This document shows positions 42,983-61,667 of a DNA stretch of 64,000 nucleotides, piece after piece. Position 1 is the first letter of the stretch. Each line of letters opens with the position of its first letter. The translations under genes were made by a program, and so were the position numbers. The notes beneath the pieces were generated by a model. It was not told the origin of the DNA. It did not search any database and worked only from the letters and a program-made list of their open reading frames with translations. This DNA is from Actinomycetota bacterium. GTDB lineage: Bacteria > Actinomycetota > UBA4738 > JACQTL01. The stretch is taken from assembly GCA_036394995.1 (NCBI GenBank), contig DASWED010000125.1, positions 341 to 64,340 on the forward strand. The letters are read 5' to 3'.

Positions 42983-44561
42983 CCTCTCCCGCCCCGACGT
43001 GGCTCCGGACGAAGATCGCCGACACCACCGAGGCGAGCACGGCGAATCCCACCGCGACCAGGAACGCGATGTGGATGGAGTGCGTGAACGAGACCCGGAC
43101 CGCCTCCTGGACGGTGTGCACGACCTGGGGCGAGGTCCCGGGAGGCGGCGCCACCGCGTGCGTCGAGCCCGACGCCGCAGCGGAGCCGGCCTTGTCCACG
43201 ATCGCGTTGGCCGTCCGGGTCGGGAACCCAGCGTCCACCAGGCGGGCCAGGAAGGACCGCTTGAACGACGATGTCACCACGGCTCCGAGCAGGGCGATAC
43301 CGAACACCCCCCCCAGCTCCCGGCTCGTGTTCGTGGCCGCCGAGGCCACGCCGGCCCGCTGGACGGGGACGCTCGCCATCACCGCGGCGGTCATCGGAGC
43401 CATGGTCGAGGCCATCCCGGCGCCCATGACCACCATGGAGGGCAGGATCACCCACATGTAGGACGAGTCCGGCTGGAGGCGAAGGGCCAGGGCCAGCCCG
43501 GTTCCCAGGGTCAGCGTCCCGAACGTCATGAACCACCGGGAGCCGAACCGGTCGGACAGCCGGCCGGCCACCGGCGCGATGAGGAGGATCATCACGGTGA
43601 ACGGGAACAGCCGGACCCCCGCGCCGATGGGGGAGAAGCCCCGGACGTTCTGGAGGTACAGCGACAGGAAGAACGTCGACCCGAACAGGGCGAAGAACAC
43701 CGAGGCCGCGACGACGTTCGCCGCGGCGAACGTGGGGATCCGGAAGAACGCCAGGGGGAGCATCGGGTACTCGCGGCGCGACTCGATGACGAAGAACGTC
43801 ACCAGCAGGACCGCCGACAGGGCGAACGAGCCGAGGATCACCCCGTCGGTCCATCCTCGATCGTTCCCCTCGATGAGGGCGTAGACCAGGAAGAACAGGC
43901 CGGAGGTCCCCGTGATCAGGCCCGGCGGATCGAGCCGGCGGGAGCGCGACTGGTCGCGGGATTCACGGACCACGATCCAGGCCAGGGTCGCGCCGACGAA
44001 CCCGATCGGGACGTTCACGAAGAAGATGCTCTGCCAGCTGACGTGTTCGACCAGCCACCCCCCGATGAGCGGACCCAGGGCGATGGCCAGCCCCGACATG
44101 GCGGCCCAGATGCCGATGGCCGCCCCCCGCTCCTTGCCGGTGAACGTCGCCGTGATGATCGAGAGCGTCCCGGGCAGGAGCATCGCCGCCCCGAGTCCCT
44201 GGACGGCCCGGAACGCGATGAGCTGGTCGATGCTCTGGGACAGCCCGCAGGCCAGTGAGCCCAGGACGAACACGCCCAGGCCGGTCAGGAAGAAGCGCTT
44301 GCGCCCGTACAGGTCGCCGAGCGCGCCGCCGGTGAGCATGAACGACGCGAACGTCAGGGTGTAGGCGTCGATGATCCACTGGAGCCCCGACACGCCGGAT
44401 CCCAGCTTGTCCTGGATCGTGGGCAGCGCCACGTTCACCACGAGGTTGTCGAGCATGGGCATGAACAGCCCGAACACCATCGCGACGAGGACCCACCACT
44501 TCCGTCCGTCGGCCGGCGGGGCCGTCGCGTCCGATGAGGTCCTCTGCAAGGTCCTCGCCAT
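42963..44561 (-). CDS. MFS transporter, DHA2 (EmrB/QacA, 14-TMS) drug-efflux type
   Basis: ATG 44561 after AAGGAGGA. WWVLVAMVFGLFMPMLDNLVVNVALPTI..GALGDLYGRKRFF..FRAVQGLGAAM. Confidence 0.85.
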   Translation of the reverse strand: MARTLQRTSSDATAPPADGRKWWVLVAMVFGLFMPMLDNLVVNVALPTIQDKLGSGVSGLQWIIDAYTLTFASFMLTGGALGDLYGRKRFFLTGLGVFVLGSLACGLSQSIDQLIAFRAVQGLGAAMLLPGTLSIITATFTGKERGAAIGIWAAMSGLAIALGPLIGGWLVEHVSWQSIFFVNVPIGFVGATLAWIVVRESRDQSRSRRLDPPGLITGTSGLFFLVYALIEGNDRGWTDGVILGSFALSAVLLVTFFVIESRREYPMLPLAFFRIPTFAAANVVAASVFFALFGSTFFLSLYLQNVRGFSPIGAGVRLFPFTVMILLIAPVAGRLSDRFGSRWFMTFGTLTLGTGLALALRLQPDSSYMWVILPSMVVMGAGMASTMAPMTAAVMASVPVQRAGVASAATNTSRELGGVFGIALLGAVVTSSFKRSFLARLVDAGFPTRTANAIVDKAGSAAASGSTHAVAPPPGTSPQVVHTVQEAVRVSFTHSIHIAFLVAVGFAVLASVVSAIFVRSHVGAGEDAAGGH

Positions 44562-52261: not shown

Positions 52262-53227
52262 ATGACCACGCGCGTGACCAGGCCGAGGCGTTCGTGCCTG
52301 TCGGTGCCCGGCTCCTCGCCGAAGATGCTGTCGAAGGCTCCGGGTCTCCCCGCCGACGAGGTGTTCATGGACCTCGAGGACTCCGTGGCGCCGGGCGCCA
52401 AGGAGGAGGCCCGCCAGAACATCGTCCAGGGCCTCAAGGAGGGCGACTGGACCGGCAAGACGGTCGTCGTGCGGGTGAACGGCGTCTACACGAAGTGGTG
52501 CGCCCGGGACGTGATCGAGGTGGTGGAGAACGCCGGCGAGCTCCTCGACTGCCTGATGATCCCCAAGGTCGAGCACGCGTCCGACGTGACGTTCGTCGAC
52601 AACCTCCTGCGGATGATCGAGGACACGCTGGGCCTGGAGAAGCGCATCGGCCTGGAGATCCAGATCGAGACGGCCACCGGCCTGACGAACATCGACGAGA
52701 TCGCCGCGGCCTCGGATCGCGCCGAGACCCTCATCTTCGGCCCGGCCGACATGAGCGCGTCGCTCGGCCTGCCCACCGTCACCGCCGGGCTCGCCATGCC
52801 GAACTACCCCGGCGATCACTTCCACTACGTGCTGGAGCGGATCCTCATCGCCGCCCGGCACCAGGGGCTCCAGGTGATCGACGGGCCGTACCTCGTGATC
52901 AAGGACCTCGACGGGTTCCGGGAGATGTCGCTCCGCAGCCGCGCCCTCGGCTACGACGGCAAGTGGGCCCTGCACCCCGGCCAGATCGACGTCCTCAACG
53001 AGGTGTTCACCCCGAGCCAGGACGAGTTCGACAAGGCCGAGGCCATGCTCGAGGCTTACGAGCACGCCACGGACGTCCAGCTCACCGGCGCGGTGATGTT
53101 CGGCACCGAGATGATCGACGAGGCCTCCCGGAAGATGGCCGAGCAGCTGGCCCTCCGCGGCCGCGCCGCCGGCCTGACGCGCATGAAGTCGCTCGGGGAC
53201 TTCACGGCACCGAAGGGCGAGGGGTAG
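52262..53227 (+). CDS. HpcH/HpaI aldolase / CitE-like acyl-CoA lyase (malyl-/citramalyl-/HMG-CoA lyase type)
   Basis: RRSCLSVPGSSPKML..DEVFMDLEDSVAP..VVVRVNG..LMIPKVE..IETATGL..LIFGPADMSASLG..DGKWALHPGQI. Confidence 0.85.
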   Translation: MTTRVTRPRRSCLSVPGSSPKMLSKAPGLPADEVFMDLEDSVAPGAKEEARQNIVQGLKEGDWTGKTVVVRVNGVYTKWCARDVIEVVENAGELLDCLMIPKVEHASDVTFVDNLLRMIEDTLGLEKRIGLEIQIETATGLTNIDEIAAASDRAETLIFGPADMSASLGLPTVTAGLAMPNYPGDHFHYVLERILIAARHQGLQVIDGPYLVIKDLDGFREMSLRSRALGYDGKWALHPGQIDVLNEVFTPSQDEFDKAEAMLEAYEHATDVQLTGAVMFGTEMIDEASRKMAEQLALRGRAAGLTRMKSLGDFTAPKGEG

Positions 53228-53230
53228 CCG

Positions 53231-54430
53231 ATGGCCGGCGGGACGCCCATCGGCTCAGGACTGGTCGAGCTCACCGACGAGCAGCGGGAGATCGTCTCGA
53301 CGGTCCGCGACTTCGTGGAACGGGAGGTCATCCCGGTCGCGGACGAGCTGGAGCACCGGGACGAGTTCCCCGAGAAGATCGTCGAGCACATGAAGGAGCT
53401 CGGCCTGTTCGGGCTCACGGTGCCCGAGGAGTACGGTGGGGCCGGGCTCGACCTCATGACCTACGCGCTGGTCGGCGTGGAGCTGTCCCGGGGCTGGATG
53501 TCGCTCTCCGGGATCATGAACACGCACTTCATGGCCATCTACCTGCTGAAGAAGCAGGGATCCGACGAGCAGAAGGAGAGATGGCTCCCCCGGATGGCCA
53601 CCGGCGAGCTCCGGGCCGCGCTCTCCATGTCCGAACCCGGCGCGGGCTCCGACGTCCAGGCCATCCAGTGCAGGGCCGTCCGCGACGGCGACTCCTACGT
53701 CGTGAACGGCACCAAGATGTGGGTGACGAACGGCCTCCGCGCCGGGCTCGTCGTGCTCCTGTGCAAGACCGACCCCGAGGCCGACCCGCCCTACAAGGGC
53801 ATGTCCGTCCTGATGGTGGAGAAGGACGCCGACGAGCGGAAGTTCGAGGGCATCACGGTCCCGCCGAACATCGAGAAGATGGGCTACCACGGCGTGGAGA
53901 CCACCGAGCTGGTCTTCGAGGACCACCGGGTGCCGGCGGAGAACCTCCTGGGGTCGGAGGGCGAGGGGTTCCGCTACATCATGGACGGCATCGAGGTGGG
54001 GCGGGTGAACGTGAGCGCGCGCGCCGTTGGCCTGGCCACAAGGGCGTTCGAGGAGGCCATCGAGTACGCGCAGCAGCGGGTGGCGTTCGGCAAGCCCATC
54101 GCCCAGCACCAGATGATCCAGGAGAAGCTGGCCCACATGGGCACGCTGCTCGAGGCCTCACGCCTGATGCTGCTCCAGGCCGCCAAGAAGAAGTCGGCCG
54201 GCGAGCGCAGCGACCTCGAGGCCGGCATGGCCAAGTACTTCTGCACCGAGGCCTGCCACGAGATCGTGACCGAGTCCCTCCGCGTCCACGGCGGATACGG
54301 CTACAGCGCCGAGTACACGATCGAGCGCCTGTACCGCGACGCCCCGTTCCTGCTGATTGGAGAGGGCACCAGCGAGATCCAGAAGCTGGTGATCTCCCGG
54401 CAGCTCCTGGAGCGCTACAAGGTCACGTAG
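53231..54430 (+). CDS. Acyl-CoA dehydrogenase
   Basis: LTDEQREIVSTVRDFVE..ALSMSEPGAGSDV..YVVNGTKMWVTNG..RVAFGKPIAQHQMIQEKLA..GGYGYSAEYTIERLYRDA..IGEGTSEIQ. Confidence 0.9.
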   Translation: MAGGTPIGSGLVELTDEQREIVSTVRDFVEREVIPVADELEHRDEFPEKIVEHMKELGLFGLTVPEEYGGAGLDLMTYALVGVELSRGWMSLSGIMNTHFMAIYLLKKQGSDEQKERWLPRMATGELRAALSMSEPGAGSDVQAIQCRAVRDGDSYVVNGTKMWVTNGLRAGLVVLLCKTDPEADPPYKGMSVLMVEKDADERKFEGITVPPNIEKMGYHGVETTELVFEDHRVPAENLLGSEGEGFRYIMDGIEVGRVNVSARAVGLATRAFEEAIEYAQQRVAFGKPIAQHQMIQEKLAHMGTLLEASRLMLLQAAKKKSAGERSDLEAGMAKYFCTEACHEIVTESLRVHGGYGYSAEYTIERLYRDAPFLLIGEGTSEIQKLVISRQLLERYKVT

Positions 54431-54439
54431 GGGGTCCGG

Positions 54440-55171
54440 CTACGCGGGGCTCTCCCCCCGGTCCGGAACGGCCAGGCCCTCGACCTCCGGAACGCGCTGC
54501 CACCTCCGTAGCAGCCCGTACAGCACGCCTGCGGCTGAGCCGCCGATGAGCGGCCCGAAGATGTAGATCCACAGGTCGGTGGAGGACCCGGCGACGATGG
54601 CGGGAGTGATCGACCGGGCGGGGTTGAACGACCCGCCCGAGACCGGGCCGATCACCGTGGCCGCGACGAAGATGAACCCGCCGATGGCGATCGGTGCGAA
54701 CACGCCCTGCCACGGGGCCCGCGTGTCGGTGGCGACGGCGTGGATTACCAGCACGAACAGGAACGTCCCGATGACCTCCAGCCAGAACGCGGTGCTGGTC
54801 TCGATCCCGGGGCCCGGCGCGTTCACCAGAGCCTTGCCGACGTTCGAGTCGAACAACCCCCGGACCGCGGCCGACGCCCCGATCCCGCCCACCAGCTGGG
54901 CCACCCAGTACGCCGGGACCTCCAGCCACGGGAACTGCCCGCCGAATGCCAGGCCCAAGGACACCGCCGGATTGAGATGCCCGCCCGAGATGTGACCGAA
55001 GGCGAAGATCATCATGGCCACGCCGAGGCCGAATCCCGCCGCGACACCGCCACTGCCGATGCTCCCGGAGATCGAGGTCGCCGCCGCGATGCCCATGAAC
55101 CCGAGGAAGAAGAACCCGAACGTCCCGATGGCCTCGACGATCGCCCGCTGGACGAGCGGTGGCTTGTTCAC
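54440..55171 (-). CDS. MIP/aquaporin family channel
   Basis: GTG 55171 after AAGGAGGA. Two NPA boxes, SGGHLNPAVSLG and SGGSFNPARSI. Confidence 0.9.
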   Translation of the reverse strand: MNKPPLVQRAIVEAIGTFGFFFLGFMGIAAATSISGSIGSGGVAAGFGLGVAMMIFAFGHISGGHLNPAVSLGLAFGGQFPWLEVPAYWVAQLVGGIGASAAVRGLFDSNVGKALVNAPGPGIETSTAFWLEVIGTFLFVLVIHAVATDTRAPWQGVFAPIAIGGFIFVAATVIGPVSGGSFNPARSITPAIVAGSSTDLWIYIFGPLIGGSAAGVLYGLLRRWQRVPEVEGLAVPDRGESPA

Positions 55172-55291
55172 TGCGGTCCTCCTTCCCCGGGCGGCTGCGG
55201 CCTCACGGTGTCCCGGACCCTACGCGCGACGGACAACCGACTCAAGCATCCGAGCGCCGCCACCGGGTCCCTCCTGCTAGCGTCGCGGCAC

Positions 55292-55837
55292 ATGGAGTCC
55301 GTTTGCGGAAGCCTGCTCGTGGCGGGGCCGGCCCTGCTCGACCCCAACTTCGCGCGGTCCGTGGTGCTGATCGCGGACCACGACGAGGACGGCGCCCTCG
55401 GGGTCATCCTCAACCGCCCGTTGCCGGTGGCCGTGCACGACGCCGCCCCGCCGCTCGCGCCGCTCGTCGACGCCGACGCGTCGCTGTTCCGGGGCGGCCC
55501 CGTGCAGCCCCAGGCTGTGGTGGTCCTGGCCGAGTTCGAACGGGTGGAGGACGCGGGGGTGCTGGCGTTCGACTCCATCGGGTTCCTGCTGGGTGACGTG
55601 GACCCCGACGTCGCGGGGCGCCTCCGCCGGGCGCGGGTGTTCGCCGGGTACGCGGGCTGGGGGCCCGGCCAGCTGGACGCGGAGCTCGAGGAGGATGGCG
55701 GCTGGATCGTCGAACCGGCCCTGCCCGCCGACCCCTTCACCGGCGAGCCCGACCAGCTGTGGAGCGCCGTCCTTCGCCGCAAGGGCGGCCACTACGCGAT
55801 CCTCGCCATGATGCCCCTCGACCCCTCATTGAACTAG
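55292..55837 (+). CDS. YqgE/AlgH family (UPF0301) protein
   Basis: GSLLVAGPALLDPNFARSVVLIADHDEDGALGVILNRP..LFRGGPVQP..VFAGYAGWGPGQLDAELEEDGW. Confidence 0.85.
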   Translation: MESVCGSLLVAGPALLDPNFARSVVLIADHDEDGALGVILNRPLPVAVHDAAPPLAPLVDADASLFRGGPVQPQAVVVLAEFERVEDAGVLAFDSIGFLLGDVDPDVAGRLRRARVFAGYAGWGPGQLDAELEEDGGWIVEPALPADPFTGEPDQLWSAVLRRKGGHYAILAMMPLDPSLN

Positions 55838-55900
55838 GGCGCCGGGCGTCGCGGAACCACTCCCTCCTCACCGGTTGGGTTCCCGGACGTCCGCAAGTGG

Positions 55901-56302
55901 GTGCAAGATGTGTCGCCGCCGGGGCGTCCCCCCCATGGCAACTCGATCTCCGACAACTCCTCGTACGGGATCTTGCCGATGTCCGGTGCGAACCACACCC
56001 AGCCGTACCCGGTCGTCACCACCGTGAAGCTCGCCAACGGGCAGCTGACCGTGAAGGGCACCCTCCAGAGCGACCCCAGCACGAACCACGCGGTCGAGCT
56101 GTTCGGCAACGCCGCGTGCGACCCGTCCAGGTTCGGGGAGGGGATGACCTACCTCGCGCAGGTCAAGGTGCTGACGGACGCGTCCGGGCAGGGGTCGTTC
56201 ACCGTGAACATCCCCTACAACGGCGCGGCGAAGCCGGTGGTCACCGCGACCGCGACGAACGTCAAGAAGGGCACCACGTCCGAGTTCTCGGCCTGCAAGT
56301 GA
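55901..56302 (+). pseudogene. Orphan C-terminal module of a beta-helix-type secreted protein (..TSEFSAC end), lacking the N-terminal body and signal peptide
   Basis: GNSISDNSSYGI..QPYPVVTTVKLANGQLTVKGTLQSDPSTNHAVELFGNAACDPSRFGEGMTYLAQVKVLTDASGQGSF..VTATATNVKKGTTSEFSACK. Only 63 nt separate it from the upstream gene. High GC3, so it may still be translated. Confidence 0.45.
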
Positions 56303-56324
56303 ACCGAACCCCGCGCGGCGATCC

Positions 56325-58841
56325 CTAGATCTGGGCCTCCGACGTGATCCTGTCGTTCTCGACGACCTTCTGACAGCCGGTCGCCCCCGGCAGCGGGGTC
56401 TGGTTGGAAAGGAAGACGCCGGTCATCTTGGTGGCCCGCCACACGCCGGCCACCACGTCGGCCTCCTTGACCCGGACCTCGAGCTTCTGGGAGAAGCGGG
56501 CCTTGCCGTCCCCGCAGTCGAACGTCTGGTTGATGATCTCGCGGTACGTCCCGTCCGCCGCCGGCTGGAGCTGGTTCCGGGAGATCCCGTCCGCCGACTC
56601 GCGGATGAGGGTCAGCCCGCAGCCGGTCGCCTCCCGGCAGTTGGGGACGAAGACGTACAACCGCTGGAGATCGTCGCCGACCTTCTTGTTGGGGACGTTG
56701 ACCAGCTTGGTCACGTGCAGCGTCGTGTCCCACGTTCCCAGCACGGCGCCCTCCGCGATTGGCGGGGGCTGCTCGCCGGGCTGGAGCGGCTGAGGCGAGG
56801 GCAGCTTCCGCAGGGAGCCGTTCACGCCGTCGGTCTCGTCCACCTTCGGGCACCCGGGCACGTTCTGGCCGGGCGGCGGCTCCCAGACGAAGTGGAACGC
56901 ACCCGTGAACGAGGTGGCCTGTGGGACGCCGACGACCCGTTGCACGTCGCTCACGTGCACGGTGAAGGTCCCGACGGTCTCCTCGTATTCGAAGGTCGTC
57001 GCGCCCGTGGACGAGTCCACGCACCGGAGCGGCGAGCTGGCCTGTCCGCTGACGGTCCTGCCGACGAACGGCCCGGTCGCGTCGATCTTCTCCCCGGTCC
57101 GGCTCTCGCCGATCAGCGCGAGGTCGCACGGCCGGGCCGCGCAGTCCGTGGAGAGGATCCAGCTGCTGCTGCGGCTCTGCCCCACCTTCACGCCCCGGAC
57201 CGTCGTGCTGAGGTGTTTCACGGTGACCTTCACGTTGTAGGAGCCGGACAGCGCCGTGGGCGGGGACAGCTCGGACTCGGTCGGGGACGGCGGTGCCGGC
57301 GAGGCCGGCGAGGCGGGCGGTGACGAGTTCGCGGGTGTCGTCGGCGGCGCCACCGCCGACGCGGTGGGACCGGTTGCCGAGGGCGGGGCGGACGACGCGA
57401 CCGCCTCGGGCTTCGAGCCCCCGCCCCCGAGCGCGATCGCGGCGATCGCGGCGATGACCAGGAGGGCGACGACCGCGACGCCGATCAGAAGGCCGCGCCG
57501 GGGCGCCCGCTGGCCCGCGGCCGCGACCGGTGGCTCGGCTCGCCGGGGCCTGGGCCTGCGCTGGTCCTTGGCGTGCCGGCCACCCGGCAGCGTCGGCCCC
57601 CCTCGACCGGCCGGGGGACGCTCGGGCGGCAGGAGCCGGGTGGGGTCGCCGATCCCGTCGTACAACCCCGGCTCGCGGGTCTGGCCGTGCTCGGCGAGGA
57701 TCCGGGGCGTTCGCTCGGTCGCCACGAACTCCTCGACGAGTGGATCCAGCCGGCCCCGGTGCATCGCCCCGAGGAACCCCTCCAGGCCATCTCGCGGGAT
57801 GCAGGCGTAGGCCACACGTCCCCGGCAGCGCGCCTCGAACACGACGAAGTCCCACGTGATGAATGTCGGGCGGACGTACAGCGACCCGCTGCGGTACGGG
57901 CGCAGGGCGTCGCCGAACGGTCCCGGGCGTGGGGACGCGCTCACCGGGTCGACGTCCACCGCGAGCGGCGCCTCCGACACGAGCGGCAGCCGACCGACGA
58001 CGAGTGAGTCCAGGAGCGTCACGTCAGACGCGGCGCCGTCGGATCCCAGGTGGTCCCGGGCGGCTTCCCACGCGGCCTCGAGGACCTGCTGTCCGGTGAC
58101 CGCCCGGCCGGTCCGTGTCCGCATCGCGGCCTCGCGTCCCTCGCGGTAGAGGTCCCCGCCGAACGCAGCGCTGCCGACGAATGTCCCGTATCGACGAACC
58201 GCGGGTTCGGTTCGAGCCCGCAGGGCCGGAGGGAGCGCGCGCCGAGCCGCCCGGTCGCCCGCCACCGCAGCGGCGCAGGCGCGCGCCGCCCCGACGGCGA
58301 AGGCGCTCGCGGCGGCGAGCAGCGGACCGTCGACGTGTTCGACCCCCAGCTCCGTGCGCGACGGACGCGGCCGCACCAGCATCCCGGGTGTCTCGGCCCG
58401 GCCGGTCAGCAGCATCATGGCGGGGGCGAACCGCCGTACGAACAGCCGGCAGACGCGGTCGTTCAGGCGGTCGGGCATGGCCACCGAGACGTGCGTCGAA
58501 TACCCCTCGAGCCGCATCTCGGGCGGGATCGCCCCGGCGAGCTCCTCGAGACCGGTCCGGACGAGTCCGCGTGCCGCGACGGTGAATCCGGGCCGCACGG
58601 GGACCGGCGGGATCGCGATCTCGGCCTCGGCCCCGTCGGCGGTGATGACGCCGCCCCACGCGCAGCGGAGGGCCAGCGGATCTCCCGGATCCACACGGCG
58701 CCCGGCCACGGGCAGCGTCGGGGCCAGCCAGCGGAAGTCGACGGGCTCCCGGCCCAGCCTGACGGTGTACTCCTGTTCGACGCCGAGCAGGGACGCGGGC
58801 TCCGGGTGCGCCACCCCGGAGCGGGGATCGCCGGCCTTCAC
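56325..58841 (-). CDS. Large single-pass membrane protein: cytoplasmic GCS2/glutamine-synthetase-fold-like (amidoligase-like) domain, TM helix, Pro/Ser linker, duplicated 4-Cys ectodomain
   Basis: Track ORF 56325..58913. I prefer GTG 58841, 7 nt after the upstream small-ORF stop. LGVEQEYTV, GAEAEIAIPP and EGYSTHVSVAMP resemble carboxylate-amine ligase motifs. TM helix LLIGVAVVALLVIAAIAAIAL. Two ~140-aa repeats each carry 4 Cys. Confidence 0.7.
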   Translation of the reverse strand: MKAGDPRSGVAHPEPASLLGVEQEYTVRLGREPVDFRWLAPTLPVAGRRVDPGDPLALRCAWGGVITADGAEAEIAIPPVPVRPGFTVAARGLVRTGLEELAGAIPPEMRLEGYSTHVSVAMPDRLNDRVCRLFVRRFAPAMMLLTGRAETPGMLVRPRPSRTELGVEHVDGPLLAAASAFAVGAARACAAAVAGDRAARRALPPALRARTEPAVRRYGTFVGSAAFGGDLYREGREAAMRTRTGRAVTGQQVLEAAWEAARDHLGSDGAASDVTLLDSLVVGRLPLVSEAPLAVDVDPVSASPRPGPFGDALRPYRSGSLYVRPTFITWDFVVFEARCRGRVAYACIPRDGLEGFLGAMHRGRLDPLVEEFVATERTPRILAEHGQTREPGLYDGIGDPTRLLPPERPPAGRGGPTLPGGRHAKDQRRPRPRRAEPPVAAAGQRAPRRGLLIGVAVVALLVIAAIAAIALGGGGSKPEAVASSAPPSATGPTASAVAPPTTPANSSPPASPASPAPPSPTESELSPPTALSGSYNVKVTVKHLSTTVRGVKVGQSRSSSWILSTDCAARPCDLALIGESRTGEKIDATGPFVGRTVSGQASSPLRCVDSSTGATTFEYEETVGTFTVHVSDVQRVVGVPQATSFTGAFHFVWEPPPGQNVPGCPKVDETDGVNGSLRKLPSPQPLQPGEQPPPIAEGAVLGTWDTTLHVTKLVNVPNKKVGDDLQRLYVFVPNCREATGCGLTLIRESADGISRNQLQPAADGTYREIINQTFDCGDGKARFSQKLEVRVKEADVVAGVWRATKMTGVFLSNQTPLPGATGCQKVVENDRITSEAQI

Positions 58842-58848
58842 GAGGGCG

Positions 58849-59043
58849 TCAGGCCTGGGGGCCCGTGGGGCCCGCCGAGCTGCCGGAGTCGTCTTCCTCG
58901 TCGTCCGCGCCACCCGTGGTCAGGCCGCGAACCGTCTGGAAATCGGAGATCAGCTGCATGACTCGATCGCGCAGCCCGGGCTCCTGCTGCTGCGCCATGG
59001 CCTTGAGCTGCTCGAGCACCTCGACGTTGGCCTTCTCGCCCAT
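58849..59043 (-). CDS. 64-aa helical protein with an acidic, disordered C-terminal tail
   Basis: ATG 59043 after GAGGAGAGGA, high GC3. MGEKANVEVLEQLKAMAQQQEPGLRDRVMQLISDFQTVRGLTTGGADDEEDDSGSSAGPTGPQA. Confidence 0.55.
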   Translation of the reverse strand: MGEKANVEVLEQLKAMAQQQEPGLRDRVMQLISDFQTVRGLTTGGADDEEDDSGSSAGPTGPQA

Positions 59044-59248
59044 ATCCTCTCCTCAGTCCGGCCGGGCCATCCTGGACCCATGCACATGGAAGACGCCTCG
59101 CCGGCGCACCCTAGCGCATCGACACCCGCCCGCGGAAGAGGTCCGGAGGCCCACGGCGACCCCCGAAGCGAAGTCGTAGGCTCTGCGATCCGGCCCGCCG
59201 TCACCGTCGGCCGGCGACCGGAATCCCCGCAGGAGGAGGTTTGCATCG

Positions 59249-59767
59249 ATGGGCGAGGCGCGGCCGTTCGGACGCTATCTGGAGGACTTCGAGGTCGGCG
59301 ACGTCTACAAGCACTGGCCGGGGAAGACCATCACCGAGTACGACGACCACCTGTTCTGCATGATCACGATGAACCACCATCCGCTGCACACGAACGCCCA
59401 CTACGCGGAGACCCAGACGCAGTTCGGGCGCAACGTGGTGGTGGGGAACCTCGTGTACTCGCTGGCGCTGGGGATGAGCGTGCCGGACGTCTCCGGGAAG
59501 GCCATCGCGAACCTCGAGGTGGAGACGCTGCAGCACCGGGCGCCGATGTTCCATGGCGACACGCTGTACGCGGAAACCACGGTGCTGGAGGTGAAGCCAT
59601 CCGGTTCCAAGCCGGACCGCGGCATCGTCACCGTGGAGACCCGCGGCTACAACCAGGACGGCGCCGAGGTTCTCTACTTCCGCCGCAAGGTCATGGTCCC
59701 GAAGCGCGGGACGGTGGACGAGCAACCCGGCCGCCCGGAGCCGAAGGCCGCCGATTCGGCGGGTTGA
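59249..59767 (+). CDS. MaoC-family (hot-dog) enoyl-CoA hydratase (mesaconyl-/itaconyl-CoA hydratase-like)
   Basis: ATG after AGGAGGAGG. FEVGDVYKHWPGKTITEYDDHLFCMITMNHHPLHTNAHYA..RNVVVGNLVYSL..HGDTLYAETTVLEVKPS. Confidence 0.85.
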   Translation: MGEARPFGRYLEDFEVGDVYKHWPGKTITEYDDHLFCMITMNHHPLHTNAHYAETQTQFGRNVVVGNLVYSLALGMSVPDVSGKAIANLEVETLQHRAPMFHGDTLYAETTVLEVKPSGSKPDRGIVTVETRGYNQDGAEVLYFRRKVMVPKRGTVDEQPGRPEPKAADSAG

Positions 59768-59774
59768 GGCCGGC

Positions 59775-60017
59775 GTGGCGCTTCGACTGGTCGATCGCCT
59801 CGACAGCGACCTCCCCGACCAGCTCCACCGGCTCTACCTGGCCGAATGGTGGACGCACCGCCGGGACGCGGACGACGTCCGCCGCATGCTGGAGGGCTCG
59901 GACGTCGTGATCGGGCTCGTGGACGAAGAGGGCGATCGGCCCCGAGTGGCCGGGTTCACCGCGGAACTCGGCGAGCTTCGGCTCATGCGCCGCGGGACGT
60001 CCCCCACGCCTCCGTGA
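59775..60017 (+). pseudogene. Possible N-terminal fragment of a GNAT acetyltransferase
   Basis: LHRLYLAEWWTHRRDADDVRRMLEGSDVVIGLVDEEGDRPRVAGF resembles the first ~60 aa of a GNAT. The acetyl-CoA-binding half is absent, and the ORF ends inside the UDG start. Confidence 0.3.
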
Positions 60018-60727
60018 GCCCCGCCGGACGAGCCCGTGCGCTGACGGCGCTGTCGAAGGAGGTGTCGACCTGCCGCCGGTGCCCCCGGCTGGTCGCCTGG
60101 CGCGAGGAGGTGGCCCGGACCAGGGTTGCCCGGTTCGCCGACGAGGAGTACTGGGGCCGGCCCCTCCCCGGCTTCGGCGACCCCGCGGCCCGGGTCCTGG
60201 TGGTGGGCTTGGCGCCCGCCGCCCACGGCGGGAACCGGACCGGCCGGATCTTCACCGGCGACCGGTCGGGCGACTTCCTGTTCGCGTCGCTGCACCGCAC
60301 CGGGTTCGCCAACCAGCCCGTCTCGACCCACCGGGGGGACGGCCTGCGCCTCAACGGCTTGTACGTGGCCGCGGCCGTTCGGTGCGCCCCGCCCGCCAAC
60401 CGCCCCACGCCCGCCGAGCGCGACGCGTGCCTCCCGTATCTGGCGCGTGAGCTCGGGCTGCTCACCGACGTCCGCGTCCTCGTCACGCTGGGCTCGTTCG
60501 CCTGGGACGCCGCGCTCCGGGCGCTCGCTTCGAGCGGCCATCGGGTCCGCCCCCGGCCGGAGTTCGGTCACCTGGCACAGGCGACGATCGGCCCCTACGT
60601 CCTCCTCGGTTCGTTCCACCCCAGCCAGCAGAACACCTTCACCGGGAAGCTCACGCCGCCCATGCTCGATGCCGCCTTCCGTCGGGCCGGTGAGATCGCG
60701 TTCGCAGGGTCGGAGGATAGGCCATGA
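60014..60727 (+). CDS. Uracil-DNA glycosylase, family 5 (UdgB-like)
   Basis: GTG 60014. CRRCPRLVAWRE..VLVVGLAPAAHGGNRTGRIFTGDRSGDFLF..LLGSFHPSQQN. Confidence 0.85.
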   Translation: MSPAGRARALTALSKEVSTCRRCPRLVAWREEVARTRVARFADEEYWGRPLPGFGDPAARVLVVGLAPAAHGGNRTGRIFTGDRSGDFLFASLHRTGFANQPVSTHRGDGLRLNGLYVAAAVRCAPPANRPTPAERDACLPYLARELGLLTDVRVLVTLGSFAWDAALRALASSGHRVRPRPEFGHLAQATIGPYVLLGSFHPSQQNTFTGKLTPPMLDAAFRRAGEIAFAGSEDRP

Positions 60728-61188
60728 TGACGCCGTTTTCGTCGATGACCATGGCCGACATCCGACGCTACGCAGCCGAGGCCGACTCGACCGACACCCT
60801 CGGGCGACCGCGCCTCTCGGCGAGGCACCACCACGTGCCGGTGGACGGCCCGCCGTGGAACGGTTTCCCGGGCGAGGAGATCATGCCCGGCGAGCTGTTC
60901 CTGGGCGGCATCGCGACCTGCGCCGTCGAGCTGATCCAGATGTTCGCCCGCGACGATGGCATCCCCCTCGGCGTGGTGCACGTCGACGTCCGGGCCGAGG
61001 TGGATCGGGAGCGCCAGCCACACGTGGGGCGCACCGTGCTCAGCCGCGTCCGGATGCGAGTGGAGGTGCAGGGCGTGTCCGGCGCGACGGCCGAGGAGCT
61101 GGTCGAGCGCTTCAAGGCGAGGTGACCGCTGTTCGGCACGGTCGCGGTCGCGACCGACGTGGAGGTGGAAGTAGAGGCGAGGGGCTGA
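60724..61188 (+). CDS. OsmC/Ohr-family peroxidase-like protein read through an in-frame TGA at the conserved C-terminal Cys-Pro position: candidate selenoprotein
   Basis: Track ORF 60724..61125 ends ..ELVERFKAR-TGA(61123-61125). The same frame continues PLFGTVAVATDVEVEVEARG* with its stop at 61186-61188. E. coli OsmC reads KAKAGCPVSQVLKAEITLDYQL here. The first conserved Cys is present (GGIATCAVE). Confidence 0.5.
61139..61156 (+). promoter_or_regulatory. SECIS-like hairpin 13 nt downstream of the in-frame TGA
   Basis: CGGUCGC-GGUC-GCGACCG: a perfect 7-bp stem. The GGUC apical loop starts 20 nt after the UGA and resembles the G/U-containing loop of the E. coli fdhF SECIS. Confidence 0.35.
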
Positions 61189-61667
61189 GCGGGGGCTGCA
61201 CGATCACCGGCACGTCCGGTGACGATCACCTCGTCGGAACGTCCGGGCACGATCAGATCTGCGGCGGCAACGGGGACGACGTGATCGAGGGCAGGGGAGG
61301 CGGCGACGTGTTGATCGGGGGTCCCGGTGCCGACAGCCTGATCGGCGGCCTCGGCAACGACACCATGCTGGGTGGCCCCGGTCCGGACGTGCTCCTCGGC
61401 GGCCGGGGCGCCGACTACGGCGAGGGTGGCCGGGGGAACGACTCGCTGAACGGCGGTCCGGGGGCGGAGGTCCTGGCCGGGCAGGAGGGCAACGACATCA
61501 TCCACGGCCAGGGCGGCAACGACCGGTGCCTCTCGGCATCCGACCTGGTGGAGGGCAACGACTCCGTGGACGGCGGTCCGGGGACCGACACGGGCGACGC
61601 CGACGACGGCGACGAGGTCATCAGCCTCGAGAACGAGTTCGCCGACGGGTCCTGCTTCGCCGAGTAG
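61185..61667 (+). pseudogene. RTX-type (GGxGxD nonapeptide) calcium-binding repeat ORF with no canonical start codon or signal peptide
   Basis: ..GGCTITGTSGDDHLVGTSGHDQICGGNGDDVIEGRGGGDVLIGGPGADSLIGGLGNDTMLGGPGPDVLLGGRGADYGEGGRGNDSLNGGPGAEVLAGQEGNDIIHGQGGND... The upstream in-frame codons include no ATG, GTG or TTG before the repeats, only CTG at 61185. The first GTG, at ~61279, is already inside the repeats. Confidence 0.4.

Follow-up and report, generated by a model that had tools for sequence, protein, structure and literature searches.

To our knowledge, pupylation, the system of Pup and the enzymes PafA and Dop, is the only protein-tagging system built on the glutamine-synthetase (GS) fold. 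Beside the other new ligase families in the superfamily of carboxylate-amine ligases, no Pup-like neighbouring open reading frame (ORF) was found, and pupylation was accordingly called distinctive (Iyer, Burroughs, and Aravind 2008). The same study described membrane-anchored Pup ligases in Plesiocystis and Rhodopirellula that have no link to a proteasome and are encoded next to a gene for a small protein. Here, we describe a two-gene locus in a stretch of 64,000 nucleotides (nt) from an Actinomycetota bacterium (assembly GCA_036394995.1, contig DASWED010000125.1, positions 341 to 64,340; hereafter ‘the window’). A minus-strand ORF for 64 aa (58849-59043) lies there upstream of a large ORF, the gene for a membrane protein with a predicted cytoplasmic domain of the carboxylate-amine ligase type. 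In hundreds of clusters, an enzyme of the PafA/Dop fold is paired with a small disordered protein in this way, and the family is thus an exception to the picture drawn in 2008.

A conserved pair of genes

The locus had been singled out from its sequence as an amidoligase-like membrane protein paired with a small acidic-tailed protein. What this original prediction had read from the letters is all present: the 64-aa ORF with its ribosome-binding site GAGGAGAGGA, ending 7 nt before GTG 58841; the tail GGADDEEDDSGSSAGPTGPQA of the small protein; the motifs LGVEQEYTV, GAEAEIAIPP, and EGYSTHVSVAMP of the large one; and, further along, an Arg/Pro stretch, a single transmembrane (TM) helix, a Pro/Ser linker, and a Cys-containing region (coordinates in Table 1). 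Purine-rich boxes similar to this ribosome-binding site precede the MGEK starts of related loci. Because an in-frame TGA lies four codons upstream, the ATG of the 64-aa ORF is taken as its true start. The longest frame of the large ORF (862 aa, 56325-58913, from GTG 58913) would overlap the small ORF, and GTG 58841 is supported as the start of the large gene because its close homologues (P0002 and P0005) begin at the equivalent position. The 7-nt gap that separates this GTG from the TGA of the small ORF (58849-58851) probably leads to translational coupling of the two genes.

Relatives of both proteins are too numerous for the observation to be due to chance. For the large protein, a word-indexed search returned more than 130, of which four, all from Actinomycetota metagenome-assembled genomes (MAGs), are full length (55–61% identity) and the others match only the first 45–60% of the query (37–50% identity). 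An exhaustive profile search of 1.84 billion representatives (50%-identity clusters) yielded 1026 clusters with a cut-off of E<=1e-3 and 592 with one of E<=1e-30. When one genome per species was scanned, 157 relatives came to light, and the best 80 of them form the basis of the locus counts given here. These 80 loci belong to Actinomycetota (47, many of them Acidimicrobiia), Chloroflexota (31), and two gammaproteobacterial bins; all but one carry the MAG label. The habitats of the family are soil and groundwater, and nearly all of its lineages are uncultured.

An ORF starting with M-G-E-K or a close variant (MEKGN, MERGN, MSEKGQ, MGEVGN, or MGEFGN) lies upstream of the ligase gene in at least 57 of the 80 loci; the start is MGEK in 47 and MGEKGN in 32. 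Several of the remaining loci encode zinc-ribbon proteins with internal or repeated (F/Y/A)EKG(N/S), and in three more (L073:2914-5422, L074, and L079) an MGEKGN ORF is found just downstream of the ligase gene. The distance between the two genes is mostly 0–60 nt, the residue before GEK is M, V, or L, and the small ORF adjoins the ligase gene in all seven gene-called contexts. Upstream of a Chloroflexi homologue whose ligase domain is 50% identical lies a 69-aa ORF that opens with VGEKGNVLD, and upstream of an actinobacterial homologue on a 359-kb contig (L005) an uncalled 73-aa ORF that opens with MGEKGNLLD. In three more gene-called cases, the small protein opens with VGEKGNAEV, with VGEKGNLTA, and, beside a ligase without a TM helix, with MGEKGTRGA. 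On four contigs of one relative, the small gene abuts a gene for an 843-aa homologue of the large protein, with katG as the upstream neighbour, whereas the window has a MaoC hydratase gene in that place. The gene set of window positions 52262-60727 (HpcH-like lyase, acyl-CoA dehydrogenase, MIP channel, DUF179/AlgH, MaoC hydratase, and UDG) recurs on a 1.98-Mb contig of the closest relative (L088), where the ligase pair stands elsewhere within the block and katG is beside it. The small ORF and the ligase gene move as a unit. Conservation and synteny of the small ORF, which the original prediction had proposed to check, extend across two phyla, in which this ORF is a near-obligate neighbour of the ligase gene. 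It is likely that the small protein is the functional partner of the ligase.

Several ligase paralogues may occur in one genome. MAGs with two ligase genes carry them on different contigs (L010 with L026, L016 with L047, L024 with L044, and L036 with L043), and the architectures differ, for example, in having or lacking the TM helix. The small ORFs of these two-ligase genomes are divergent where they can be identified; none was found with confidence at L036 or L044. The ligase genes of L073, L074, and L079, all from long-read MAGs, are split by a frameshift (301-aa and 527-aa ORFs). An assembly error would account for these loci, as would a variant gene order in which the ligase gene is a pseudogene. 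Among 275 proteins, none was found in which the small protein and the ligase are naturally fused. Residues 1–82 of one ligase homologue, P0218 (1072 aa), form an N-terminal extension with SGFEKGE, which could be a natural fusion or a frameshifted gene call; as a real fusion, it would be of value as a Rosetta-stone case.

Fold and putative active site of the cytoplasmic domain

Residues 1–449 of the large protein were modelled with AlphaFold2 (AF2) from 36 sequences, with a mean predicted local distance difference test score (pLDDT) of 88 and a predicted template modelling score (pTM) of 0.86; disorder is limited to the first eight residues and the Arg/Pro-rich residues 413–449. In a Foldseek comparison with the PDB, the best match is the PafA–Pup complex 4bjr (E 3.4e-7). 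Dop is represented by five structures (E 7e-7 to 8e-6, including 7oy3 at E 6.9e-7) and by the M. smegmatis enzyme (Mycobacterium smegmatis; E 9.5e-6), and YbdK/GCS2 by the structure 1tt4 (E 5.2e-6); no protein other than PafA, Dop, and YbdK is among the ten best matches (E 3e-7 to 1e-5, each with probability 1.0). Gamma-glutamylmethylamide synthetase (GmaS), PafA 4b0t, and glutamine synthetases come next, and the top 12 matches consist of PafA, Dop, YbdK, GmaS, and GS. Unrelated matches, the first of them to the ACT domains of aspartate kinases, have low probability and appear from E 6e-3 onwards; the C-terminal alpha/beta subdomain is probably their cause. The C-terminal domain of PafA and Dop is helical; this feature is not found here, where the model has three strands and helices at aa 322–374.

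On this evidence, the cytoplasmic domain very probably has the carboxylate-amine ligase-superfamily fold, in which helices cover the convex side of a curved antiparallel beta-sheet, and the ligase fold that the original prediction had put forward for structural checking is borne out as one of the GS/GCS2/PafA type. We place the domain in that superfamily, with PafA and Dop as its strongest structural matches and outside the PafA/Dop family as Pfam defines it. A match to a characterised unrelated family, an outcome against which the prediction had also asked to be held, was not obtained for the large protein. A full-text search that did not cover the 2009 amidoligase survey of Iyer et al. yielded no literature description of the ligase family, and an earlier computational mention of it may exist.

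The superfamily signature is GhExE (Ex[EH]) on strand 1, which has been called distinctive; in addition, strands 2 and 3 bear acidic residues, strand 4 has an [HD]x[NH] motif, one conserved Arg is found on strand 5 and another in the loop ahead of it, and strand 6 has the motif Ex[RK]x2D or [QH]x4D (Iyer, Burroughs, and Aravind 2008). In Dop, the Mg ligands are E8, E10, Y92, E99, H155, and H241, the catalytic residue is D94, and R227 binds phosphate; we verified these positions on the printed Dop sequence. GhE[HQL]E[YF] occurs in nearly all genome loci of the present family, with G20 and E24 invariant in two alignments (A1 and A3) and E22 invariant in A1 and nearly so in A3. Invariant in the next motif are T67, D69, E72, E74, and P79, for which strand numbers come from the model and not from residue-level superposition. 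When aligned by eye, D69-G-A-E-A-E74-I-A-I-P has the spacing of Dop D94-H-A-H-P-E99-Y-S-T-P103, and the family consensus has T at the second-to-last position of this D-x4-E-x-x-x-P motif, where the window has I.

G113, S115, and H117 are likewise invariant (G[YF]S[TA]H in most loci), and H117 is a candidate equivalent of Dop His155, judged by eye and from a weak hhalign register. Invariant R157, P158, R159, R162, and E164 appear as RPRPxRxE in most loci; by position only, R157, R159, and R162 resemble the conserved arginines of the superfamily. R217 and G219, invariant at an RRYG position, are reminiscent by eye of PafA RRLHV. The three stretches that the original prediction had proposed as a ligase signature therefore coincide with family-invariant residues. 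Conserved residues alternate along the predicted strands and would thus face one side of the sheet, as expected for an active-site cradle. The putative metal, phosphate, and general-base residues are intact in the ligase domain. Taken together, the four motifs are found again in nearly all of the 80 genome loci.

The small protein and its conserved parts

The small protein has 25 homologues at 58–98% identity. These close homologues share an MGEKxN start with invariant G2, E3, K4, and N6 and a helical segment, L..MA.QQEPGLRD.VM; their acidic tails vary, and the end reads P(Q/P/T)A. Across the family, the small proteins diverge after position 6 into several subfamilies of 36–214 aa, usually net acidic. 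Pro22 is invariant among fourteen aligned small proteins from both phyla (alignment A5); it is followed by aromatic residues in most other subfamilies, which are absent from the sequence in the window. The tails are usually acidic or Pro-rich, with no conserved residue, and end in PQA, TSA, PAG, DES, and others. Judging from the alignment, the small proteins are homologous beyond the motif, through a common helix-Pro-helix element. No Pfam match was found for the small protein of the window or for ten other subfamilies, barring one sub-threshold zinc-ribbon, and the Pup profile was not matched.

Glu3 is the most constant residue of the small protein. It is kept in every motif-bearing variant seen, including those that have lost Lys (MGEVGN and MGEFGN) or Gly2 (MEKGN and MERGN). 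In some loci, Val, Phe, or Arg stands in the place of Lys4, and the conservation of Asn6 is lower than that of Glu3. Across the family loci, the codons vary synonymously (GGA, GGC, GGT, or GGG at G2; GAG or GAA at E3; AAG or AAA at K4; AAC or AAT at N6), which argues for selection on the peptide and not on the RNA. Both the helical half and the tail of the original prediction exist in the window; conservation falls on the N-terminus and the helix-Pro-helix, and the tail varies freely. The functional part is therefore probably the N-terminal (M)GEKGN with the helix-Pro-helix and not the acidic tail. The protein of the window, presumably cytoplasmic, acidic, and about 64 aa long, is probably disordered over much of its length.

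One subfamily of small proteins ends in a predicted zinc-ribbon of the form ...EKGN(D/E)APCxxCGEPRGDxxPCPxCG(M)(D/E); its members are found at L054:2764-2919, L066 (~2800-2920), L081:2663-2881, L085, L086:2788-2919, and L087 (~218-526). In some zinc-ribbon proteins, (F/Y)EKG(S/N) occurs twice and is internal rather than N-terminal.

Probable membrane topology and ectodomain

Arg and Lys residues ahead of the TM helix (positive-inside rule) and paired Cys residues beyond it suggest that the ligase domain is cytoplasmic and the C-terminal part extracellular; the N-terminal side of the large protein would thus lie in the cytoplasm and the C-terminal side outside. By hydropathy, a TM-type hydrophobic helix follows aa 380 in 201 of 250 family members.

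The ectodomain of the window protein (~307 aa) has eight Cys residues in two sets (C567, 572, 607, and 664; C735, 741, 776, and 823). Its AF2 model (pLDDT 76) consists of two all-beta domains, presumably Cys-bonded, for which Foldseek gives weak matches to the two-barrel lipocalin-like proteins 2o62 and BFA1 and to lipocalins (best E 1.3e-3), and we tentatively regard it as tandem lipocalin-like barrels. Homologues of this ectodomain are confined to the same narrow clade. Pfam matches of relatives fall only in their C-terminal parts, which contain IPT/TIG, Big_3, HYR, He_PIG, Cep192/ASH-type Ig, fn3, and SprB domains, and also VHL-beta or TIR. The ectodomain is a swappable module between relatives. 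Of the sensor-like ectodomain that the original prediction had described, the large Cys-containing domain is real, whereas a fixed sensor is not, its place being taken in relatives by Ig-like, IPT/TIG, HYR, or He_PIG domains. Matches to GltJ, SrfA, DotF, and PD-T4-6 were rejected as low-complexity matches over the Pro/Arg-rich linker.

In P0060, a TIR domain (~686-787; Pfam TIR_2, and the PADLOC ThsB and SAVED-TIR-like models) replaces the TM helix and ectodomain, and there is no hydrophobic helix; this hints that some versions of the family may belong to conflict or defence systems. The divergent P0107 and P0114 (L089:6001-8214) have weak matches to the VHL beta domain (PF01847), unusual in bacteria, after the ligase domain.

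Comparison with described systems

The closest counterpart is Pup/PafA/Dop. Both systems have a GS-fold enzyme with a GhExE strand and an Asp-x4-Glu pair, an adjacent gene for an acidic, largely disordered protein of ~60–70 aa, and a Gly-preceded Glu at a chain terminus, which is reactive in Pup and proposed to be so here. The helix-Pro-helix of the small proteins presumably has its parallel in the helices that Pup forms on binding PafA. The differences are considerable. Neither protein has detectable sequence homology to Pfam Pup_ligase or Pup; the handle is an N-terminal GEKGN, whereas that of Pup is a C-terminal GGQ/GGE, so that the polarity is reversed; there is one enzyme instead of the PafA/Dop pair, with no proteasome, Mpa, or PAC2 gene nearby; the C-terminal subdomain is alpha/beta; most members are single-pass proteins with an ectodomain; and the family occurs in Chloroflexota besides Actinomycetota.

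GCS2/YbdK (1tt4 and 1r8g) and Amidoligase_2 share with the present ligase the fold and the pattern of GhExE, E-x-E, and His. They differ in acting on free amino acids or small molecules and in having no small-ORF partner, TM helix, or ectodomain, and the ligase of the window has no Pfam match to either at E<=1. The ligases of Plesiocystis and Rhodopirellula also place a GS-fold protein ligase at the cytoplasmic face of the membrane. Unlike the present proteins, they are of the true PafA family, with four TM segments inserted in the fold and a true Pup; here, the TM helix is single and C-terminal, the ectodomain is large, and the small protein is unrelated.

In architecture, the nearest parallel is with the receptor-type Ser/Thr kinases of Actinobacteria and Chloroflexi (PknB-like), in which a cytoplasmic, ATP-using enzyme is joined through a basic juxtamembrane stretch and a single TM helix to a variable extracellular module that binds ligands. 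The overall layout is the same, and several paralogues per genome are found in both cases. Here, however, the enzyme has a carboxylate-amine ligase fold and each copy has its own small protein.

Proposed function and alternatives

We propose that the pair is a two-gene module in which a receptor-like, ATP-dependent carboxylate-amine ligase acts on Glu3 of its own small protein in the manner of Pup and PafA, a proposal that we judge to have even chances of being right or wrong. The cytoplasmic ~410 aa of a type-I-like membrane protein would be an ATP/Mg-dependent carboxylate-amine ligase. After removal of Met, the small protein would begin Gly-Glu-Lys-Gly/Ala-Asn; its amphipathic helix-Pro-helix would dock on the ligase, and the flexible N-terminal G-E-K-G-N would enter the beta-sheet active site, where ATP would phosphorylate the gamma-carboxylate of Glu3. 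The acyl-phosphate could then be captured by an amine, either a small amine or a lysine, which might belong to a target protein, to the ligase, or to another copy. At the membrane, the reaction would be placed or gated by the anchoring TM helix together with the variable ectodomain, in the fashion of receptor kinases. Action of the ligase on the small protein is suggested by the gene linkage and by analogy with Pup/PafA; we infer the small protein as substrate, Glu3 as its reactive residue, the identity of the amine, and control by the ectodomain. That the outcome is the tagging of other proteins seems rather unlikely. Equally doubtful is a second, independently evolved Pup-like system, in which an ectodomain-responsive ligase would join the small protein through its N-terminal Glu to lysines of cytoplasmic or membrane proteins.

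Several observations weigh against the proposed module. Searches of Pfam and NCBIfam (at E<=1, with Pup_ligase, GCS2, and Amidoligase_2 included), PADLOC, and PDB sequences gave nothing relevant for either protein, the family profile, or 36 members; the profile search of PDB sequences returned neither PafA nor Dop. An hhalign comparison of the family with PafA (of Corynebacterium glutamicum and of M. tuberculosis) gave a local probability of 0.2% and no usable global alignment; its local register is consistent for the first three motifs only, and we do not count it as evidence of homology. The Foldseek TM-scores are modest (0.30–0.46), which indicates that the shared part is the core and not the periphery. 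Within the active site, the strand-4 motif is H-x-S (H117 and S119), with Ser in place of the second-position Asn/His of [HD]x[NH], and the family alignment shows no clear strand-6 motif (no conserved His/Gln...Asp) and no equivalent of Dop His241. None of the small proteins of the family loci compared ends in GGQ or GGE, and in a few the EKG motif is internal or repeated, so that a strictly N-terminal reaction is not required. About a fifth of 250 members are proteins of 415–480 aa without TM helix and ectodomain, so that membrane tethering is not essential to the chemistry. Finally, no conserved third gene surrounds the pair in the seven gene-called contexts, where the flanking genes differ and are of unrelated metabolic functions, and no proteasome, Mpa, or PAC2 gene was found near the pair in the contexts examined.

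The evidence of fold, active site, and pairing would be the same if the ligase modified its own small protein only, with the modified protein as a signalling, regulatory, or RiPP-like end product (RiPP, a peptide made by ribosomes and modified after translation), and this reading differs from the proposed module in the acceptor only. An amino acid or amine could be attached to Glu3, Lys4 or the alpha-amine of Gly could be acylated, or an intramolecular lactam could form. The adjacent E and K and the free Gly N-terminus provide a carboxylate and amines within the motif, and target-handling machinery (proteasome or unfoldase) is not linked in the contexts examined. Lys4, however, is not strictly conserved. 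As a rule, RiPP precursors combine a conserved leader with a core that varies and is later cleaved and exported; here, neither a protease nor an exporter is linked, and products of 36–214 aa would result. We consider this self-modification improbable to about the degree just given for the tagging of other proteins. A lasso-type macrolactam (Gly1 amine to Asp/Glu at 7–9) was ruled out, there being no conserved acidic residue at those positions.

It is unlikely that the enzyme is a small-molecule ligase of the gamma-glutamyl type (GCS2/YbdK-like or gamma-glutamylamine synthetase-like), with the small protein as its regulator, inhibitor, pseudosubstrate, or adaptor and not as its substrate. The fold matches include YbdK (1tt4) and gamma-glutamylmethylamide synthetase, and most superfamily members were concluded to make small molecules (Iyer, Burroughs, and Aravind 2008), but the strict one-to-one pairing with a small ORF is unseen in small-molecule families, the small protein resembles Pup in that its invariant part is a Gly-Glu motif at a terminus, and a catalytic Asp with Dop-like spacing points to the PafA/Dop branch. 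That same Asp, at the position equivalent to Dop D94, could speak for a Dop-like amidase or deamidase with an ATP/ADP-Pi cofactor, which would hydrolyse an amide of the small protein (e.g. that of Asn6) or remove a modification from it. Dop is among the top fold matches and has the highest TM-scores (0.41–0.46), Asn6 is strongly conserved, and a conserved loop of ~30 aa (D51, P52, and D54) before strand 2 lies at the site of the Dop-loop. Since PafA has the same Asp and an equal score, since no second paralogue is present as the ligase, and since conservation of Asn6 falls short of that of Glu3, we hold such an activity to be very unlikely.

The tight spacing of the ORFs (0–60 nt) and the lack of a strong Shine-Dalgarno sequence before GTG 58841 would also suit a leader or upstream ORF that controls expression. 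Leader peptides with a regulatory role are generally short, and their conservation lies close to the stop or stall site; the small proteins, in contrast, are conserved only in their first six residues and an internal helix, measure 36–214 aa, include some zinc-ribbons, and vary in synonymous codons. The ligase domain could alternatively be a pseudoenzyme scaffold, against which the invariant Glu, Asp, His, and Arg residues argue, and we regard expression control and scaffolding together as extremely improbable.

Should the ligase conjugate the small protein, as in the module that we propose, the resulting post-translational modification would be new, and signals might cross the membrane in a way not described before; if conjugation under the ectodomain were true, signalling or local marking of proteins would proceed by conjugation and not by phosphorylation. 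A GEKGN tag with a dedicated ligase could become an orthogonal tool for protein ligation or proximity labelling, a use to which PafA and Pup have already been put. If, more modestly, the partner only is modified, there is still an unannotated enzyme family together with a family of small proteins that gene callers sometimes miss, as at L005.

Feature coordinates and other observations

Table 1. Features of the small ORF and the large gene, with positions in the window and residue numbers of the 64-aa and 838-aa proteins.
Feature	Position	Strand	Basis
Shine-Dalgarno sequence of small ORF, GAGGAGAGGA	59045-59054	-	Read from sequence; one base before ATG
Small partner protein, 64 aa, net acidic	58849-59043 (including stop)	-	ORF, homologues, and pairing
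N-terminal handle, codons 2-6, Gly-Glu-Lys-Ala-Asn (family G-E-K-G-N)	59026-59040	-	Homologue conservation
Helix - Pro22 - amphipathic helix region, aa 8-38	58930-59022	-	Alignment of 14 small proteins
Acidic Gly/Ser/Pro-rich tail, aa 44-64	58852-58914	-	Differs between relatives
Large gene, 838 aa from GTG 58841	56325-58841 (including stop)	-	ORF and homologue starts
Carboxylate-amine ligase (GS-fold) core, predicted, aa ~15-300	57942-58799	-	AF2 and Foldseek
GhExE motif, G20-V-E22-Q-E24	58770-58784	-	Predicted strand 18-29
T67-A-D69-G-A-E72-A-E74-I-A-I-P-P79	58605-58643	-	Strands 65-69 and 72-76
Strand His, G113-Y-S115-T-H117-V-S119	58485-58505	-	Strand 109-121
Arg-rich strand pair, R157-P-R159-P-S-R162-T-E164	58350-58373	-	Strands 153-159 and 162-168
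C-terminal alpha/beta subdomain, aa ~318-405; invariant W330, P349, G363, D366	57627-57890	-	Model and family alignment
Arg/Lys/Pro-rich disordered juxtamembrane stretch, aa 411-449	57495-57611	-	pLDDT <50
Single TM helix, aa 450-472 (838-aa numbering)	57426-57494	-	Sequence
Pro/Ser/Thr/Ala-rich extracellular linker, aa 473-531	57249-57425	-	Sequence
Ectodomain, two tandem all-beta repeats	56328-57248	-	AF2 model and Cys pattern

The G+C content of the locus is 73%, compared with 71% for the window. The locus is present in at least ten soil-metagenome DNA runs and in none of the RNA sequencing runs searched; promoter, terminator, and Rfam scans found nothing. Towards the 3' end of the large gene runs a convergent 133-aa ORF of the plus strand (55901-56302), for which there is no Pfam match and whose C-terminal half is beta-rich and flanked by Cys. 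The relatives L001 and L088 lack it at the corresponding place, and it may be spurious or a fragment of a gene. The only tRNA of the window, a tRNA-Gly (CCC), lies on the minus strand (43165-43257), and no Rfam matches reach the gathering threshold. On the plus strand at 61077-61667, downstream of an OsmC-like gene (60724-61125), five stretches of RTX calcium-binding nonapeptide repeats are found (HemolysinCabind, E 3e-28).

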